From: Polyangia bacterium
GTDB taxonomy: Bacteria; Myxococcota_A; Polyangia; Fen-1088
DNA length: 55,547 nucleotides
Assembly (NCBI GenBank): GCA_038325725.1
Contig: JBBQJG010000002.1
Location: 1-55,547 of the forward strand
Reading direction: 5' to 3'
Of the stretch, positions 34,198 through 54,401 are shown piece by piece (positions within the stretch are counted from its first letter, which is position 1; the number at the start of each line of letters is the position of its first letter). A program made the translations under genes and the position numbers. Below the pieces are notes generated by a model, which was given only the letters and a program-made list of their open reading frames with translations, did no database searches and had not been told where the DNA came from.

Positions 34198-35532
34198 TCA
34201 GGGAAAGCGGCCGCTCGCGACGAGGAGGTCGAGGCGCGCGTGGCGGGCGACGTCCTCGGCCTGGGAAGCGTCGCCCTCGGCGTCGCGCGCGCGGTGAGCG
34301 GCGTCGATGACCTCGAGGTTCGTGGTCGCGCCCGCCTCGTAGGCGAGGTTCGCGAGGTCGTAGGCCTTGTGCGCGAGCAAGACCTCCTCGCGCACGGAGA
34401 GCAGCGCCTGATCGGCGTGCAGCAGGGACTCGAAGGCGACGCGCACCTCTGATTGCGCCTGGCGAAGAGAGGCGTCGAGGTTTGCGCGGGCCTCGGTGAC
34501 GAGCGCGTCGCGCTCGCCGCCCACACCGGCGCGGAGACCGCCGTCGTAAAGCGGCAGCGTGAGGAGGAGCTGAGCCTGCCAGCCGATCTTGGCCTGCAAC
34601 GCGGAGCCTATCTGCACGAACGGCTGGCCCACGGCCGCGAGGTACGGGGCGTAATAGGCCCAGACGTCCTTGCGTGCGTGCTCGGCGGCCACGACCTTCC
34701 CGCGCTGGGCGTCGATGTCCGGGCGCCGCGCGCGGGCGTCCTCGAGCGCGTCGGGGAGGCTCGGCAGCTTCCCCAGATCGACGCCGTTGACGGAATCGAC
34801 GGGGGTCGCGCCGCCCACGAGCACGCCCAGCGCCTCGCGTGCGCGCACGAGCCCTGTGTAGACGGTCTGCAGCTGTACCTCGACGGTGGCGAGGTCTTGT
34901 TGGGCCCGCACGTCGTCGATGCTGCGGCCGACGCCGCCGGCGAGCCGCGTGTGCGCGTACGTCGCGTGGGCCCGGGCGTTGGCGCGCGCGGCCTCCGTCG
35001 AGCGGATCTGTCGGTGTTGCGCGAGGACGGAGAGATAGGCGTTGGCGGTCGCCTGCGCGATGAGGCGGCGCACGTCGCCCGCGTTCTCCTCGGCAACGCG
35101 GCGAGCGTCGCGTGCGCGGCGATCGGCCGTCCAGCCCTGCGGCGCGACGAGCGGCACCGTGAGCACGAGGTTGCCGGCGATCTGATTCTCAGCCGCGATG
35201 ACCTTCTCGTTGAGGACGCGGTCGTGGTCGAGCCGTGTGTAGACCCCGTTCCCGACGAGCGTGGGCCACCAGCCCGCGCGCGCCTGCTCGAGGAGGCCTT
35301 CGGCGCGCGCGACCTCGGCGCGGGCGATCGCCAAGGTCGGGTTGCGCGCGACCGCGCGGCGGATCGCCTCGTCGAGCGTGATGCGCTCGGTGGTGTCGGC
35401 GGGAGGTCCCGCCCCGGGGCCGACGGGGACCTCCGTCGCGCGCGCCGACGGCGCGGCCGCCACCGAGGCCATGACGAGGAACGTCCACGAGAGACGCCGG
35501 CTACGCATGAGCGCCCTCGCCCCTCGCGACAT
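34198..35532 (-). CDS. TolC family outer-membrane efflux protein
   Basis: Signal peptide (FLVMASVAAAPSARA) and two repeated coiled-coil/beta halves typical of OEP (NPTLAIARAEVARAEG...; ...LDLLVASGRFP). An alternative start at ATG 35508 gives an 8-nt overlap with the RND stop. Confidence 0.85.
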   Translation of the reverse strand: MSRGARALMRSRRLSWTFLVMASVAAAPSARATEVPVGPGAGPPADTTERITLDEAIRRAVARNPTLAIARAEVARAEGLLEQARAGWWPTLVGNGVYTRLDHDRVLNEKVIAAENQIAGNLVLTVPLVAPQGWTADRRARDARRVAEENAGDVRRLIAQATANAYLSVLAQHRQIRSTEAARANARAHATYAHTRLAGGVGRSIDDVRAQQDLATVEVQLQTVYTGLVRAREALGVLVGGATPVDSVNGVDLGKLPSLPDALEDARARRPDIDAQRGKVVAAEHARKDVWAYYAPYLAAVGQPFVQIGSALQAKIGWQAQLLLTLPLYDGGLRAGVGGERDALVTEARANLDASLRQAQSEVRVAFESLLHADQALLSVREEVLLAHKAYDLANLAYEAGATTNLEVIDAAHRARDAEGDASQAEDVARHARLDLLVASGRFP

Positions 35533-38500
35533 CGTCCGCGTCGGGCGAGGCCCCGTGGGCCCGCTTCGAGAAACGCTCGAGCGCCGTGTAGAGCGCCGGC
35601 ACGAGGAACAGCGTGAAGAACGTCGACACCGTGAGGCCGCCGATGACGGCGCGCGCGAGCGGCAGGTTCGTCTCGCTGCCCTCGCCGATGCCCGCCGCCA
35701 TCGGGATGAGGCCCACGATCGTCGCGATCGTCGTCATGAGGATGGGCCGCAGGCGCGTGCGCCCCGCTTCGATCGTTGCCCGGTTCAAGTCCATGCCGCG
35801 GTCGCGCAGCACGTTCGCAAAATCGACGAGCAGAACCCCGTTCGACACGACGATGCCGACCATCATGATGATGCCCATGAAGCTGTTCACCGAGAGCGTC
35901 GTACCTGTCAGGTACAACGCGACGAACACGCCCGTCACGCCGAGCGGCACGCTGAACATGATGACGAGCGGGTCGATGAGCGACTTGAACTGCGACGCGA
36001 GCACCATGTACACGAGCAGGATCGCGAGCACGCCGCGAACCCGAGATCGGCGAAGGCCTGCTTCTGGGCCTCGGTCTGCCCGCCCAGGTGCGCCGTGAAG
36101 CCGTCGGGCGGCGGCAGGTCGTCGAGGACAGCTTGCACGGCGGCGCTCGCGCCGCCGAGATCCTTGCCGGGGCCGACGTTCGCCGTGACGTCGACGATTC
36201 GCTGCAGGTACTTGCGGTTGATGACGACGGGGCCGCTGCCGCGGGTCACCTTCGCGACGGTGTCGAGCGCCACCATGCCGCCCGCGGGCGTGCGCATGAA
36301 CAGCGTCGACAGGTCGCCGACGCGCGAACGGTGGGCGTCGTCGAGACGCACGTTGATGAAGTACTCGTTGCCCGTCTTCGGATCGGTGAACGGGATGGGC
36401 TGGAACTGCGTGTTGCCGACGAGGCTCGTGAGCACGGTCTGTGCGACCTGCTCTTCGCTGAGGCCCAGGGTGCCGGCCTTCTCGCGGTCGACGGCGACGT
36501 CGAGCTCGGGGTAGTTGTCCTCGCGGTTGATCTGGACGTCGGTGAGCCAGGGCTTGCCGTCGACGTCGTTGAGCGCGCGCACGCGCGCGAGCACGCGCTT
36601 GGCGTACTCGGAGCCGACGTCGAGGTCGTGGCCGACGATCTCGATGTCGACGGGCGCCGGCGCGCCGAAGTTCAGGATGCGCTTCACGATGCCGCCAATG
36701 AAGAAGTAGGCCTGCGTGCCCGGCAGCGCGTCGCGCAGCTCGGCGCGCGTGAGCTCGGCGGCCTTCGTGTCCGAGATGTCGCGTTGGGAACGCGGCACGA
36801 GGTTCACCTGCACGTTGCCGGAGTGCGGCCCCGTGTTCTGCGAGAACACGGCCGAACGCCCGATGGGGAGGCCGACGTCCGAGATCATCGTCGTCGTCGC
36901 TGGTCGAGGTCCTGCTCGCAGGTGCTTGTCGGCCGCCTGCTCGATGCGCCGGCTCACCTCCTCGGCGTGCTCGACGCGCGTGCCGATGGGCGCCTTGAAG
37001 CTCACGGTGAACTGGGCCTCATCGGCGTCGGGGAAGAACTCGGTGCCGATGAAGCGTTTGAGAAACAGTGACACGGCGAACAGCCCGAGGATGCCGAACA
37101 CCGTGACGGCGCGGTGCCCGAGCACCCACCCCAAAGAGCGGGCGTACGCGGCGTCGACCGCCTCGAGTCTTCGGGTGATGACGCCCGCGAGGCCGCTCGG
37201 CTTGGTCTCGCCGTCGCCGCTCTTGAGCGTGAGCAGGCACAGAAGCGGCGTCACCGTGCGCGACACGAAGAAGCTCATCGAGAGCGCGAAGGTGATCGTG
37301 AGCGCGAGCGGCAGGAACAGGTTCCGCGCGACGCCCGTGAGGAATAGCACCGGAAAAAACACGACGATCGTCGTAATCGTCGACACGAGGATCGGCATGG
37401 CGACTTCCTGCGCGGCGGCGAGCACGGCGGCGCGCCGGTCTTGGCCGAGCGCGAGGTGGCGGTGGATGTTCTCGAGCTCGACGATCGAATCGTCGACGAG
37501 CCGCCCGACGCCGAGGGCGAGCCCCCCCAGTGTAAAAACGTTGAGCGTCTGCCCCGTGAAGTACAGGCACACGAACGTCGCCATGATCGACAGCGGGATC
37601 GCGACGGCGATGATGCCGGTCGAGCGCAGGCTCACGAGGAAGATGAGGATGACGAGCACGGCGAGCAGACCACCCGAGACGGCCTCGTGCTCGAGCGCCG
37701 ACACGGCGGCGCGGATGTAGTGCGACTGGTCGAAGGCGATCGAGAGCTTCACCGTGGGCGGCACACCGCGCAGCTTCGTCATCGTGTCGCGCAGGGTGTC
37801 GACGACGGCGATCGTGTTGGCGCCCGGTTGCTTGAGCACGCGCAGATAGACGCCGCGCGACCCGTTGACGCGCACGATCTCCGTCTGGTCGGCGGCCGCG
37901 TCCTTGACGGCGGCGACGTCGGAGACGCGGATTGCCGACGTCCCTTCCCGCCCGTTGCCGGCCGCGGCGCGCCGCACGATGACGTCCTCGAGCGGCTTGG
38001 CGCGGTCGACTTGCGTGTTCGAGAAGATGTTGTAGTCGCGGTCGCCGGCGCGCAGGTTTCCGCTCGGCAGCAGGAGGTTCGACGCTTTGACCGCCGCGAC
38101 GAGGTCGAGGATGCCGAGCCCGCGCGCGCGCAGCGCATCGGGCTGCGCCTCGACGTTGATCTGCCGCGTCTTGCCGCCGCTGACGTTCGCGCTCGCGACG
38201 CCGGGGATGCGCTCGAGCTGCGGCTCGATCGTGTTGTAGGCCAGATCGTAGAGCTGGCGCTCGTCGAGGCCCTCCCCCGTGACGGCGACCTGCGCGACGG
38301 GGATGTTCGTGATGTCGAACTTGATGATGAACGGCTGCTGGATTCCGGGCGGCAGCGTGTTGAGGATCTGCGCGACCCGCTGCGACACCTCGAACTGCGC
38401 GTTGTCGAGGTTGACGCCGTAATTGAACCAAACGCTCACCGACGAGAAGCCCTGCCGCGAGATGCTCTCGACGCGATCGACGCCCGGCGACGCGCCCGTG

Positions 38501-38709
38501 GCGCGCTCGATGGGCTCGGTGATGCTCTTCTCGATGTCACCCGGTCCCGCGCCCGTATAGAAGGTCGCGACGCGGATGACCGGGACGGTGATCTCCGGGA
38601 ACAGATCGACGCTGAGGCGACGCACGGACACGATGCCCAGCACGACCGTCATGAGCGACATCATGAGGATGAGGACCGGATTTCGGAGGGCGAGGCGCGT
38701 GAGCCACAT
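35501..38709 (-). pseudogene. Efflux RND transporter permease (AcrB/HAE1-like) with its reading frame broken near 36030-36037
   Basis: ORF 35935..38709 gives a typical RND N-terminus (MWLTRLALRNPVLILMMSLMTVVLG...) up to ...QAFADLGFAA, then becomes Cys/Ser/Arg nonsense. The frame offset by one base (ORF 35501..36031) continues with the conserved VLAILLVYMVLASQFKSLIDPLVIMFSVPLG...RLRPILMTT... block. Together they make about 1065 aa, a normal RND length. Confidence 0.85.
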
Positions 38710-50472: not shown

Positions 50473-50480
50473 GCAGAGCC

Positions 50481-50705
50481 CGGACGCAGAGTCGCAGCGC
50501 GGACTCGCTCCCAGAAGGCGGACGCGGAGTCGCGTCGCGGACTCGCTCCCAGAGGCGGACGCAGAGTCGCATCGCGGACTCGCTCTCAGAAGGCGGACGC
50601 AGAGTCGCGTCGCGGACTCGCTCTCAGAAGGCGGACGCGGAGTCGCATCGCGGACTCGCTCCCAGAGGCGGACGCAGAGTCGCGTCGCGGACTCGCTCCC
50701 AGGCC
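50481..50705. repeat. Six head-to-tail copies of a 37/38-bp unit (cggacgcRgagtcgcNNcgcggactcgctcYcagaRgg)
   Basis: Unit starts are at 50481, 50519, 50556, 50594, 50632 and 50669, with no unique spacers between units. Each unit has an internal inverted repeat, GAGTCGC..GCGGACTC. Confidence 0.9.
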
Positions 50706-50720
50706 AGATCAATCCCAGTC

Positions 50721-50750
50721 CAGAGCCTCGCGTCCCATACCGCGCGGCAC
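50721..50750. repeat. Left arm of a perfect 30-bp inverted repeat (partner at 50983-51012)
   Basis: cagagcctcgcgtcccataccgcgcggcac is the exact reverse complement of 50983-51012. The similarity extends imperfectly to about 75 bp per arm, ending in gatctgccgcttggt (50774-50788) and accaagcggcagatc (50946-50960). Confidence 0.95.
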
Positions 50751-50982
50751 AATCGTCCCGACAGATTGCGCGCGATCTGCCGCTTGGTAGCTTTCGTCGC
50801 CGAGTGGCATCCGATCCGCTCTGCAAATAGAGCTCGACGACGGGACGAGGTCTCCCCTCCTTCGACGGTGAACGGATGCCACTCGCCGCCGAAAGCCCTG
50901 GTGGCAGACGCGGTGTAAGGGGGAGACCTCGGCACGGCGTGAGCAACCAAGCGGCAGATCAGGCCCAAGTTGTGGGGCGAGT

Positions 50983-51012
50983 GTGCCGCGCGGTATGGGA
51001 CGCGAGGCTCTG
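50983..51012. repeat. Right arm of the perfect 30-bp inverted repeat (partner at 50721-50750)
   Basis: gtgccgcgcggtatgggacgcgaggctctg is the exact reverse complement of 50721-50750. Confidence 0.95.
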
Positions 51013-51020
51013 GTCCGGGT

Positions 51021-51116
51021 CTGGGAGCGAGCCGCAGGCGAAGCGACTCCGGGCCTGGGAGCGAGTCCGCGATGCGACTCCGGGTCTGGGAGCGAGTCCG
51101 CGATGCGACTCCGGGT
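51021..51116. repeat. Three tandem copies (31-34 bp) of the reverse complement of the 50481-50705 repeat unit
   Basis: Units at 51021 (diverged), 51055 and 51086. Positions 51055-51082 are the exact reverse complement of the 28-nt core at 50638-50665 (cggagtcgcatcgcggactcgctcccag). Confidence 0.85.
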
Positions 51117-51149
51117 CCCACGCCAACGTGTTACCGTTTGCGTGTCCGC

Positions 51150-54100
51150 ATGAACGAGCCGAACACGGACGCGGAGGCTGACCTTCAGGGCCCGTTGCCC
51201 AGGGCCTTTGGGAACTTCACGCTGCTCAAGTCTTTGGCGCGGGGGGCGCGGGGTGAGGTGTTCGCGGCGCTTCGGCCCGTGGAGATTGAGCGGTTTTGCG
51301 CGCTGAAGGTGCTGACGGCCGAGACGACGCGGCGGCCGGACTTCGTCACCGGGCTTCGCAACGAGGCGACGCGCATCGTGAGGAGGATTCACGGCAACCT
51401 CGTGCAGCTGTATGACGTCGGGTTGGTCGATCAGCGCTTGTTCTTCGTGAGCGAGCTCGTCGACGGCCTCGACCTCGCGGCGCTGCAGGCGGCGTTGGCG
51501 CGGAGGCGGCAGGCGTTTCCCGTCGACGTCGCCGTGTTCGTCGCGATGGAGATCGCGGCGGCGCTCAGCTATTTGGGGCGGTTCGCGATTCGCAACGGCG
51601 ATCCGGCGCCGCTGCCGGGCGGATTGTCGCCGCGGGCGGTGCTGCTGTCCTTCGACGGCGAGGTGAAGCTGCTCCACTACGGCGCGATGATGGCGTCGCT
51701 GCCCATCCACGAGACGCTCATGCCGCCGATCGCCGTCGCGGCCAATCTCACGGCGCCCGGCGCGACCGAGATCTATTTGGTGGGAGAGCTCCTGCGCTCG
51801 CTCGTCGGCGCGTCGCCCGTCGCCGTGGGCAAGGCGCCCCCGCTGGTTCCGCCGGCCGGGGCGCGCGCCCTCCAGCCGCCCCCGACGCTCGCGCGCGTCA
51901 TCGAGCGGGCGCTCGCGACCGAGCCCTCGCAGCGCTTCGCCGACGTCGATGATCTGCGCGCGTCGCTCGCGACGATCCTGCGCGCGCTTCGGCCCGCGGG
52001 AGCGACGACGCCGGCCCTCGGCGACCTGCTCCGGCAAGCGGCGCCGCCCACGCTCGTCGATCGCGCGGCGCTCATTGCCCTCGCGAAGTCGTACGATCCG
52101 AAGCGCGGCGCCTCGCCCCCGACGTGGAAGGCCATCACGCTGACGCGCCTCGAGACGGGCGCCGCCTCGCGCCCACCGCGCGCGCTCGCGCCCGTCGTCG
52201 ATCTCGGCGCGCTCGGCGCGGGCGAGGTCATCCCCGGGACGCGCTATCGCATCCTGTCGAAGATCGGCGAGGGCGGCATGGGCAGCGTCTACCTCTCCGA
52301 GCACGTCGACCTCGAGAAGAAGGTCGCCCTCAAGCTGTTGCGTGCCGACGTCGCGCGCGACGCCGAGACGCTACAGCAGTTTCGCCAAGAGGCGCGCGCC
52401 GCCTCGAAGATCGGCAGCGCGTACATCTGCGACGTCACCGACTTCGGCGAGCTCGCCGACGGCCGCGTCTTCTTCGTCATGGAGTACCTCGACGGGCAGT
52501 CGCTCGGCCGCGTGCTCCGTCAGCTGTCGCGCATCCCAGCGGCGCGCGCGATCGCGATCCTGCGGCAAATCGCCAAGGCGCTAGGCGCGGCGCACGAAAA
52601 AGGCATCGTGCACCTCGACGTCAAACCCGACAACGTCATGCTGCTCGCCCAGGGCAAGCGCGTCGACGCCGTCAAGGTCGTCGACTTCGGCATCGCCGGC
52701 CTCATCCAACAAGGCGGAGAGGAAGAGGAGATCGCCGGCACGCCCGAGTACATCGCGCCCGAGCGCGCGCAGGGGCACGGCTACGACCACCGCAGCGACA
52801 TCTACGCCATGGGCGTCGTCGCCTACGAGATGATGAGCGGCAGCGTCCCCTTCCACGGCAAGAATCACGTCGCGACGCTGACGATGCAGGTCAAGGACCC
52901 GCCCATGCCGCTCGATCGCCAGCCCCAGACGAAAGGGTTGCCGCTCGAGCTCGTGAGCCTCGTCATGCGCATGCTCTCGAAGGATCCCGAGGCGCGTCCG
53001 CAGAGCATGGCCGAGGTCGAGGCGCTGCTGTGCGAGGCCCAGATCGCGGCGGGCCTCACGACGGGCTGGGACGATCTCGAGCTGCCCGCCGTCGACGACG
53101 CGTGGCGCGAGAAGCTCGAGCGGCGCATGCCGTCGTCGCGGCGTCCCCGGCGCGCGATCCTACTGGCCGCGGGCGGTGTCGCCGCCGTGTCGCTCGCCGT
53201 CGCGATCTACTTCGGCTTCGTGCGCGCGCCGTCCATCGTCGTCAAGGAGGTGCGCGTCGAGCTCACGAACACCGAGGAGGCGCCCGCCGTCGCGGCGGCG
53301 CTGCTCAAGGCCGATCAGGCCGCGCGGCGCGAACGCTATGTGCGCCCCGCGAACGATTCGGCGCTTCACTACATCGAGGTCGCCGAGGGCGAGGCGACTG
53401 CCCTGCGGCGCAATTCGGCGGGCGCGACGAGTCTGCGGCGCGCCTACGCCTCGGCCCTCACGGTGATCGGCAACGAGCTCGTCAAGGCCGACCTGCGAGA
53501 CTTGGCCGTCACGAAGTACAAAGAGGCGCTGTTTTTTCTCCCGGACGATCCGGCGTTGCAGGCGAAGGCCGAGCTGTCGCCAGACGAACGCCGGCGGCGC
53601 GAGCGGCGCGACGAGAAGCACGCCGCCGCGGCGGCGCTCGCGCCTGCGCCCGGCGACGACGCGAAAGACGCCGCGACGCGCGTCTTCGTCGCGGCGACGC
53701 ACGGGCGCCTGTCCGAGGCGCGCCTGGCGCTCAAGAGCTTGGGCGGCGACGATCCTGGCGGCGTGCAGAGCGCGCGCCTCGCCGATGCGCTGCGCACGCG
53801 CGCGGCCGCCGCTTGGAGCGCGGGACACCAGGACGACGCGCGCCCGCTTTACGCCCTCGTCAGCGAGATCGATGGGCACGACGCCGAAGCGCGCGAGCGC
53901 GGTAAGACGCCGACGGCCCCGACGGCGATCCCTGACGCGGGCGTGGCCGCGGTCGTCGCGTCGCCGCCCGCGGGCAAGGGCAAGCGCCGCGACGACGCGA
54001 GCCCGAACGACGCCGAAGCGAGCGCGCCACGCAACCCGGCCGCCGCGAAGGTCGCCGCGGAGGCGGGCCTCGCGGCGATGGCGCGCGGCCGCCTGCCCGA

Positions 54101-54401
54101 CGCCGAGCAGGCGTTCACGCGCGCCGTCCGCGCCGACTCGACGAACGCCGTCGCCGTGGGCGGTCTCGCCGAGGTCGCCTTCGAGCGCGCCCGGTATGCT
54201 GACGCGCTCGACTACGCCCGCCGCGCGTCGCGCCTCGCCCCGAAGAACCCGAAGTATCTCGTCGTGACGGGCGATGCCTTCTTCAAGTTGCTCCGCTACG
54301 ACGAAGCCCTCGCGAGCTACGAGAAGGCCGCCACCCTCGCCCCCCGTGACGCCGCCATCAAGGCCCGGGCCGATCGCGTCCGCGCCAAAATGGACAAGTG
54401 A
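51150..54401 (+). CDS. Tandem pseudokinase-kinase Ser/Thr protein kinase with TM segment and C-terminal TPR repeats
   Basis: ATG 51150. Domain 1 (about 51210-52020) is kinase-like ([24 protein letters not shown]), but the catalytic loop reads [10 protein letters not shown] and DFG reads HYG. Domain 2 (about 52240-53030) is intact: [23 protein letters not shown] (non-RD), [17 protein letters not shown] segment [26 protein letters not shown]-like repeats at the C-terminus. Confidence 0.85.

Follow-up and report, generated by a model that had tools for sequence, protein, structure and literature searches.

A rare, lineage-restricted non-coding foldback element with a conserved core beside a kinase gene of soil Polyangia

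Non-coding repeats that persist are few in bacterial genomes, and hardly any have been described for the Polyangia. Eukaryotic Foldback (FB) transposons have long inverted arms made of tandem subrepeats. The sopC site of the F plasmid, like other centromere and iteron arrays, is made up of tandem units of about 40 bp that adjoin one another and each contain a short inverted repeat, and toxI of the type III toxin-antitoxin systems consists of 5.5 repeats of 36 nt. In pneumococci, BOX is a composite repeat with the structure boxA - boxB(n) - boxC (Croucher et al. 2011, PMC3049150). Repetitive extragenic palindromes (REPs) and the REPINs are mobilised by RAYT (Bertels & Rainey 2011, PMC3116915; Di Nocera et al. 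2013, PMC3733652), and the REP palindrome carries a conserved GTAG or CGTC tag at one end (PMC3733652). The element described here lies in a stretch of 55,547 nt (hereafter, the window) of contig JBBQJG010000002.1, a metagenome contig of a Polyangia (Myxococcota) bacterium according to the source names of its kinase homologs. It is ~640 bp long and is situated within the 677-nt gap between a lipoprotein gene and a pseudokinase-kinase-TPR gene (hereafter, the kinase gene).

A small group of soil myxobacteria carries an unnamed family of such non-coding foldback elements. The favoured reading, which is held with about even confidence, is that these are low-copy, non-autonomous foldback elements built like BOX, miniature inverted-repeat transposable elements (MITEs) and REPINs, with a conserved folded core that acts in cis. 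The element consists of a conserved core of ~180 nt with two interleaved helices of 21-24 bp, closed by a long imperfect stem, and of two inverted arms of tandem 31-38-bp hairpin units, the number and linker length of which would drift by slippage and homogenisation. Three traits that are seldom seen together are combined here: arms of tandem hairpins like those of the foldback transposons of eukaryotes, clear differences between close relatives through gain and loss, and an interior that is more conserved than neutral sequence, with two interleaved helices kept by compensatory change. The parts of the copy in the window are as follows.

50481..50705, + strand: left arm array, six 37/38-nt units in the long-linker form (from repeat finding and direct reading)
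50706..50777, + strand: left strand of the long closing stem S, with the outer block 50714-50759 conserved
50778..50787, + strand: left strand of P0, TGCCGCTTGG, pairing with 50947-50956
50790..50813, + strand: 5' strand of helix A, 24 nt, pairing with 50873-50896
50818..50833, + strand: small hairpin h, GCTCT-GCAAAT-AGAGC, with the GCAAA loop motif kept in the related loci L005, L006 and L008
50837..50857, + strand: 5' strand of helix B, inside helix A; its partner, 50920-50940, lies outside helix A
50873..50896, + strand: 3' strand of helix A (from inverted-repeat search and core alignment)
50897..50919, + strand: unpaired linker CCTGGTGGCAGACGCGGTGTAAG, conserved, with 20 of 23 positions the same in L005
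50920..50940, + strand: 3' strand of helix B
50947..51020, + strand: right strand of P0 and right strand of stem S, within which 50983-51012 is the perfect complement of 50721-50750
51021..51118, - strand: right arm array, a variant unit (51021-51054) and two canonical 31-nt units in the short-linker form

Much of this layout had been noticed by a model that saw only the letters and their open reading frames (the sequence-only reading), and all the coordinates that it gave for the two arrays, the long inverted repeat and the central stems are exact. Tandem Repeats Finder places the left array at 50481-50702, with a period of 38, 5.9 copies and 91% matches, while direct reading gives the six spacerless head-to-tail units that had been claimed (38, 37, 38, 38, 37 and 37 nt), each with its own inverted repeat and each holding GAGTCGC-NNN-GCGGACTC. 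The unit palindrome, GAGTCGC-ATC-GCG(G)ACTC, is set in units of 31-38 nt and forms a hairpin with a 7-bp stem and one bulged base. The 22-nt pattern GAGTCGCNNCGCGGACTCGCTC has eight matches in the window, all of them inside the element, against 0.12 expected. The left array also has a higher-order period of 113 bp, in which units 1-3 resemble units 4-6 (94% matches), and this indicates that a three-unit block was duplicated recently. The right array is in reverse-complement orientation (51014-51117 in Tandem Repeats Finder, period 31, 3.3 copies); its innermost unit is the divergent variant, and the two canonical units follow. As reported by the sequence-only reading, 51055-51082 is complementary to 50638-50665, at 28 of 28 positions.

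Between the arrays, the long inverted repeat (50721-50750 with 50983-51012) is complementary at 30 of 30 positions and continues inwards imperfectly, through 46 nt at 91% and 43 nt at 77%. The arms of the two central stems interleave: 24 of 28 positions pair between 50789-50816 and 50870-50897, and 12 of 12 between 50846-50857 and 50920-50931, the latter stem extending to 21 nt at 86%. The potential of the region to form a giant hairpin, also predicted earlier, is evident in its folding energy of -267.7 kcal/mol for the 677 nt, against -167 +/- 7 for shuffled sequences (z = -14). When the 55.5-kb window was scanned for arrays and long palindromes, none comparable was found outside the element. 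GANTC sites are about ten times denser in the element than on average in the window; they are missing from the units of L006 (see below), and GANTC methylation sites were for this reason rejected as a feature of the family.

The same architecture is encountered at the same lipoprotein-kinase site in two relatives. In L005, where the kinase is 86% identical, the contig starts inside the left array and holds at least five left units, the long stem, the core and five right units. In L007 (GCA_028287125.1), where the kinase is 92% identical, the contig starts in the 3' strand of helix B, and the right array has five units, three of the variant type and two canonical. The element is real, and is present at this site in three lineages. 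A chimeric or collapsed repeat might be suspected, given that the L005 and L007 contigs break inside the element and that arrays of 31-38-bp units are hard for short reads. Such an assembly artefact is scarcely credible, because two independent assemblies share the architecture and the locus of the window; moreover, all three assemblies come from different projects, have the same order of parts, and differ by lineage-specific substitutions and compensatory changes. The numbers of left and right units are six and three in the window, at least five and five in L005, one and three in L006, and five on the right in L007, where the left part lies off the contig; these counts are uncertain, as they come from short-read assemblies in which the L005 and L007 contigs both end inside the element. 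The break in L007 falls in unique core sequence, and could reflect a structural polymorphism or poor sequencing through the hairpin.

Within a genome the units are near-identical, and lineage-specific changes appear on both arms, for example the change from GCGGACTC to GCAGACTC in L005. The arm units are undergoing concerted evolution. In the window the 37/38-nt long-linker form makes up the left array, and in L005 it makes up the right one, with the 31-nt short-linker form opposite in each case and the core in the same orientation (window 50481-50705 and 51021-51118 compared with L005 1-143 and 456-648). It is possible that linker indels were homogenised independently in the two lineages, or that two successive inversions took place; the swapped arms hint that either the centre or the entire element may invert. 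The unit period also varies, being 37/38 or 31 bp in the window, 34-36 bp in L007 and 45 to ~60 bp in L006, and in the variant units of L007 and the units of L006 the GAGTCGC/GCGGACTC repeat is replaced by other small hairpins.

The core is considerably more conserved than neutral sequence. At four-fold degenerate sites, identity between the window and L005 is 73%, in the kinase gene (n = 596) as well as in the neighbouring PEGA-domain gene (n = 211), whereas the core (50778-50957) is identical at 163 of 180 positions (90.5%). The unit core is identical at 26 of 27 positions in L005 and at all positions in L007. In the long stem, the outer blocks are ~84% and the inner blocks ~65-70% identical between the window and L005, the inner ones being close to neutral; one of these, at ~50758-50777, changes at a neutral-like rate and is still partly paired. 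Such a block-wise mosaic is incompatible with the element having been transferred whole in recent times, and indicates that particular blocks are under purifying selection. Four 1-nt indels separate the cores of the window and L005, which excludes a conserved reading frame and makes the element non-coding. Open reading frames (ORFs) over the element are not conserved. In addition, a six-frame concatenate, searched against protein databases for spurious ORFs over other copies, gave no match, and a 165-aa ORF searched against 1.84 billion representatives gave one marginal low-identity match, split into six stretches.

In a three-way alignment of the core (window, L005 and L006), 88.8% of cells pair. 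Eight pairs have changed on both sides, two in helix A, with the changes in L006, five in helix B and one in the small hairpin, compared with 0-2 when the partners are slid by 1-3 columns. The RNA duplex energies are -38.6 kcal/mol for helix A and -31.1 kcal/mol for helix B, and the best nested folds reach -97.2 kcal/mol for the one containing helix A and -88.2 kcal/mol for the one in which helix B is enforced. Both helices are maintained, as a pseudoknot or as alternatives. The helix tips (TGGCATCC/GGATGCCA and the GG(T/C)CTCC/GGAG(A/G)CC region) are nearly invariant, which suggests sequence-specific recognition besides pairing.

These properties raise the question of whether the core is a structured non-coding RNA, either with its own gene or as a 3'-UTR or intergenic RNA. 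Helices A and B would then form a pseudoknot closed by the long stem, the stem and arms would act as a double-stranded processing stem like those of rRNA precursors for RNase III, and the RNA, selected by the host, would be carried by the foldback arms. In line with this, the core evolves about three times more slowly than four-fold sites, the unpaired linkers are conserved too while the inner stem blocks drift neutrally, and both interleaved helices have compensatory changes. Mismatches in the long stem of L005 are also mostly of G-U type rather than A-C type on the + strand (8 vs 1), but this bias is missing in the window (3 vs 3) and reversed in L006 (2 vs 4); the copies are inconsistent, and the mismatch types fail to identify a transcribed strand. 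Rfam gave no match at the gathering score, and when the threshold was relaxed to E = 10 the window, L005 and L006 still lacked a match, the best hits (E ~0.5) being to different families for each; this agrees with the sequence-only reading, which had recognised no RNA family. A search for promoter-like and terminator-like sites found none, and ARAGORN found no tRNA or tmRNA. Further points against an RNA are that helices of 21-24 bp are far longer than those of known pseudoknotted RNAs, that the helix tips are invariant in sequence instead of covarying, that the element appears to have been lost in the L047 locus (see below), and that the arms of a DNA palindrome can co-vary without RNA. Overall, a structured RNA, free-standing rather than a kinase leader, is regarded as possible but unlikely. 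Two other candidates were rejected: a sigma-54 promoter in the core (TGGCAT-N5-CCGCT), the spacing of which is not kept in L005 or L006, and a retron, for which there is no reverse transcriptase adjacent.

The distribution of the element among relatives bears on its origin. On its right it is bordered by two features.

51131..51140, + strand: box GTGTTACCGT, outside the element and present in every kinase ortholog locus, with or without the element
51150..54401, + strand: pseudokinase-kinase-TPR gene, with ATG at 51150 and the start MNEPN... conserved in L005, L007 and L047

Seven kinase orthologs at ~73-78% identity (L006, L015/16, L017-21, L022, L024 and L025) have lipoprotein-kinase spacers of 68-290 bp, without the element there. 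Two more loci, found through the lipoprotein, are L047 (75% identity) and L048 (71%); both have spacers of ~125 bp, in which the unit-like sequences GCGATGTGACTCCGGGG (L047) and GAGGACTCCCGGG (L048) adjoin the box. The L047 spacer holds a single right-type unit, AGCGCGTCAGCGATGTGACTCCGGGG, beside the box, while the rest of the element is absent. In a neighbour-joining tree of the kinase N-terminus, all 300 bootstraps place L047 within the clade formed by the window, L007 and L005, and 77% group it with the window and L007. On this tree, L047 would have lost the element, or the element would have been gained twice at one place.

A second context is found in L006 (the 608-kb contig Ga0683573_0000007), where a homologous element of ~490 bp exactly fills the gap between the convergent stops of the kinase and PEGA genes, and none is present upstream of the kinase. 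This copy has one left unit, three right units and perfect closing stems of 22 bp and 13 bp. Its core is 72% identical to that of the window (nhmmer E = 1.5e-36), and the sequence GAGCCGAAGGCGA recurs in its units and in the variant units of L007 and the window. The copy is a later insertion, because L024, a close relative with a kinase 87% identical to that of L006, has 1 nt between the two stops. A third context is provided by L008, a soil contig in which half an element (the long stem, P0, one strand of helix A and hairpin h) lies beside CoA-transferase genes. The family thus appears to occupy three contexts, with gain and loss. No direct repeat is visible at the flanks of the element in the window; in L006 no part of the gap lies outside the element, and the empty site of L024 measures 1 nt. 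Two supposed insertion marks were discarded. GTAG at the left edge is part of the conserved surroundings of the lipoprotein stop codon, and L006, L017, L022 and L024 have it with no element at that place. An insertion of IS200/IS605 type 3' of TTAC was considered as well, but this TTAC lies 15 nt away from the element, within the conserved promoter box.

An explanation without mobility is that the element grew in place, through tandem duplication and inversion of a local hairpin or terminator in a repeat-prone spacer. This would accommodate the unit-like sequences beside the box in L047 and L048, where the rest of the element is absent, and the recent duplication of the 113-bp block in the left array. 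Other hairpins occur in the same places. In L015 (9438-9618) and L025 (1556-1850), the lipoprotein-kinase spacer begins with a terminator-like hairpin, GGGACCC-TGAGA-GGGTCCC, followed by two to three direct repeats of a different unit that holds GCCGAGC-AAA-GCTCGGC. In L022 (13201-13340), an unrelated palindrome of ~130 bp, CAACCGCCATGGCGCCATGACGCC...GGCGTCCTGGCGCCATGGCGGTT, fills the kinase-PEGA gap, the same gap that is used by the L006 element. The lipoprotein-kinase spacer seems prone to hairpin repeats. However, growth in place does not explain why a homologous core and related units are found at a different site in L006 and are absent from its close relative L024, nor the homologous half element in the unrelated context of L008. 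Given that L047 is nested in the element-bearing clade, the single unit there is more readily taken for a scar than for a precursor. Growth in place is accordingly judged improbable.

On the favoured reading, that of a low-copy foldback element, the common ancestor of the window, L007 and L005 lineages acquired the element in the stretch that separates the lipoprotein stop from the kinase promoter. It was probably deleted in L047, where one unit was left, and a sister copy landed between the kinase and PEGA stops in L006. Copying or moving would presumably take place in trans, since no such enzyme is encoded in the window, and the conserved core and the bulged unit hairpins may be the cis sites, recognised as folded single strands.

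The element is rare. One copy is present in the 55-kb window, which is the sole share of the source genome covered. In 355 kb of related loci, nhmmer found no solo units besides the L047 scar, and there are no extra cores. The exact unit pattern had four single matches in 185,579 species genomes, all in unrelated phyla and without further likeness to the element, and these were judged to be chance. A metagenome scan with the arm pattern returned seven loci, of which L008 is the only true relative; the other six are without surrounding repeat structure. Plasmids and phages gave no match in blastn, and in viral contigs three patterns gave no matches or chance ones (one in a coding region, the rest without a profile match). 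No parent insertion sequence was found among the species genomes, plasmids, phages and viral contigs, although exact-match scans would miss diverged copies or diverged parent elements, and there is no transposase among the 30 upstream genes scanned. The copy number is not that of a typical REP family; the element is lineage-restricted and rare. The earlier suggestion of a REP/MITE-like mobile palindrome thus holds in kind, as there are three non-orthologous contexts and clean presence and absence among close relatives, and falls short as a high-copy family, with a single copy in 55 kb and neither solo units nor further cores in the 355 kb.

The genomic setting is that of a core chromosome. The 30 upstream genes scanned include aspS, pgk, secG, dapF, ruvB, ruvC, maf, an RND efflux pump, and histidine and Ser/Thr kinases, and none of them is a transposase, integrase or partition gene. 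The other window genes keep the synteny of the relatives, which is likewise without a transposase. The gene order that is kept in many relatives comprises a PilZ-domain gene, three genes without a Pfam match (the third being the lipoprotein gene), the pseudokinase-kinase-TPR gene, the PEGA-domain gene, a gene without a Pfam match, a RecA-like (ImuA-type) gene, a Y-family polymerase (ImuB-type) and a DnaE2-like polymerase. Elsewhere in the window, the gene for an AcrB-type RND transporter (35501-38709, - strand) is split into two overlapping ORFs, 35935-38709 corresponding to profile positions 2-862 and 35501-36031 to positions 870-1020; the split points to a frameshift, which may be genuine or an error of assembly.

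On sequence grounds, the true start of the kinase is ATG 51150. The database model of the kinase (P0001, 1109 aa) starts 26 codons further upstream (the extra part being 51072-51149), inside the right array, and is probably over-extended. The L007 gene call likewise reads through the repeats (MRLRGWERAEGDATPG...). The box, with the consensus GTGnTACCGT, precedes the kinase ATG in every lineage, by 12 to ~35 nt and in most by 12-22 nt, and is always to the right of the element; it is also found at ~9976-9985 in L006, and near the kinase ATG in L015, L017, L022, L024, L025, L047 and L048. It resembles an extended -10 (TGn-TAnnnT) and may mark the kinase promoter. An extended -10 this near the ATG would imply a very short leader, and a simple promoter scan found no promoter-like site. 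If the box is the kinase promoter, the element lies upstream of that promoter and outside the kinase 5' UTR. The proposal that the element is a structured leader controlling the kinase is therefore difficult to sustain: the promoter-like box is to the right of the element in all lineages, the element appears to have been lost in L047, and the L006 copy is downstream of the kinase. The most plausible local effect would be that of a large hairpin which ends or insulates lipoprotein transcription ahead of the kinase promoter, rather than that of a kinase-specific switch.

A further alternative is that the element is regulatory DNA. The units would bind a dimeric protein on both sides of a factor-bound core, and the resulting looped nucleoprotein complex would control the kinase promoter or act in a centromere-like manner. 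In favour of this, each unit has a 7-bp inverted repeat, the last unit abuts the conserved -10-like box, the unit sequence is strongly kept in L005 and L007, and in L015 and L025 different tandem hairpin repeats occupy the same spacer. However, the spacing is not constant (31, 34, 36, 37/38 and 45 to ~60 bp), and in the units of L006, as in the variant units of L007, unrelated small hairpins take the place of the inverted repeat. No promoter is near the L006 copy, which is flanked by two stop codons, and in L047 the promoter box is present where the arrays are lacking. Neither ParA or ParB nor any other partner gene adjoins the element; the absence of ParA and ParB, already noted by the sequence-only reading, is borne out in the 30 upstream genes scanned. 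Regulatory DNA of this type is thus quite improbable. The same evidence, namely the varying spacing, the replaced inverted repeat and the sister copy between convergent stops, speaks against a sopC-like array of dimer operators as a property of the family, and the related copies at other loci (L006 and L008) are incompatible with an operator array specific to this locus.

The fit with a non-autonomous palindromic element rests on the non-coding foldback build, the variable tandem arms, the intergenic insertion, the loss with a one-unit scar and the lack of an associated gene nearby. Several observations weigh against it. Firstly, the copy number looks low, with one copy per 55 kb and none elsewhere in the 355 kb, the species genomes, the plasmids or the phages. 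Secondly, neither a target-site duplication nor an autonomous partner was found in the searches described above. Thirdly, a decaying selfish insertion at an orthologous site should not stay as conserved as this core is relative to the four-fold sites, which points to a host-level function, ongoing conversion from other copies, or independent site-specific insertions. Fourthly, both independent insertion sites flank the same kinase gene, which is partly a matter of ascertainment, as all loci were fetched around that gene. The core may be a cis site for copying, an RNA, or both. The element should not be dismissed as junk, because a core with two covarying interleaved helices lacks a counterpart in the BOX, REPIN and foldback families. 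It is tempting to speculate that the core is the heart of an undescribed class, either a structured RNA (guide-like, ribozyme-like or a processing substrate) on foldback arms or a folded single-stranded DNA site for a recombinase or HUH-type enzyme, kept by selection in Polyangia since well before the lineages split; this is put forward tentatively, as an outside but serious possibility.

Should the core prove to be an RNA or a folded-DNA recognition site, it would represent a new family and point to a partner enzyme. Even as nothing more than a selfish palindrome, the element would be useful as a marker. Metagenome assemblies break at it, two of three contigs ending inside it, and gene callers are misled by it, as is evident from the database kinase model that begins inside the repeat.

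Compared with described systems, sopC and the centromere and iteron arrays share with the element the contiguous tandem units of about 40 bp, each with a short inverted repeat. They differ in that no ParA, ParB or Rep gene is found here and the setting is a chromosomal housekeeping one, in that neither the spacing (31 to ~60 bp among relatives) nor the inverted repeat is conserved, and in that one copy lies between convergent stops. With toxIN the element has in common about six spacerless tandem repeats, 36-38 nt long, in non-coding DNA. It differs in that the array is followed by a palindromic core and then by the kinase gene, and not by a ToxN-like gene; there is a second, inverted array, and the period ranges from 31 to ~60 nt among relatives. 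With the FB transposons, which are eukaryotic, the element shares arms of tandem subrepeats that are unequal and variable in length.

As in MITEs, the element is small (640 bp) and non-coding, with frame-breaking indels and inverted termini in the form of its arms, and it is present or absent between close relatives. Unlike a typical MITE, it has no visible target-site duplication or parent insertion sequence in the material searched, and its interior, which in MITEs is normally unconstrained, is its most conserved part. The unit resembles a REP in being an imperfect palindrome of 20-40 bp with a bulged base, and inverted units forming a long hairpin are reminiscent of REPINs, which are described as vertically inherited and long-persisting. 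REPs, however, are dispersed in tens to hundreds of copies, whereas the units here are found only inside the element. The units read directly lack the terminal GTAG or CGTC tag, CGTC occurring only as a loop variant in units 2, 4 and 6, and no RAYT (Y1 transposase) gene is among the 30 upstream window genes scanned. Compared with REPINs, the arrays are direct and head-to-tail rather than alternating, and the large conserved core is without a REPIN counterpart. The element thus fails the defining REP/REPIN features that were tested, the tag and the dispersed units.

BOX is present in about a hundred or more copies per genome, in contrast to the single copy per 55 kb here. In BOX the tandem module is situated between complementary ends, while here the tandem units are themselves the inverted arms and a conserved 180-nt core is central. 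There is no sequence similarity, the host phylum is different, and the resemblance is one of build only. Within that build, the likeness extends to several features: both are composite, non-coding intergenic repeats without a clear target-site duplication; the terminal modules of BOX are mutually complementary and predicted to form a stem-loop; its internal tandem module varies in copy number between strains; and BOX has been proposed to affect neighbouring transcripts (PMC3049150). The combination that characterises this type of repeat, complementary ends together with a variable tandem module, is found in the Polyangia element as well.

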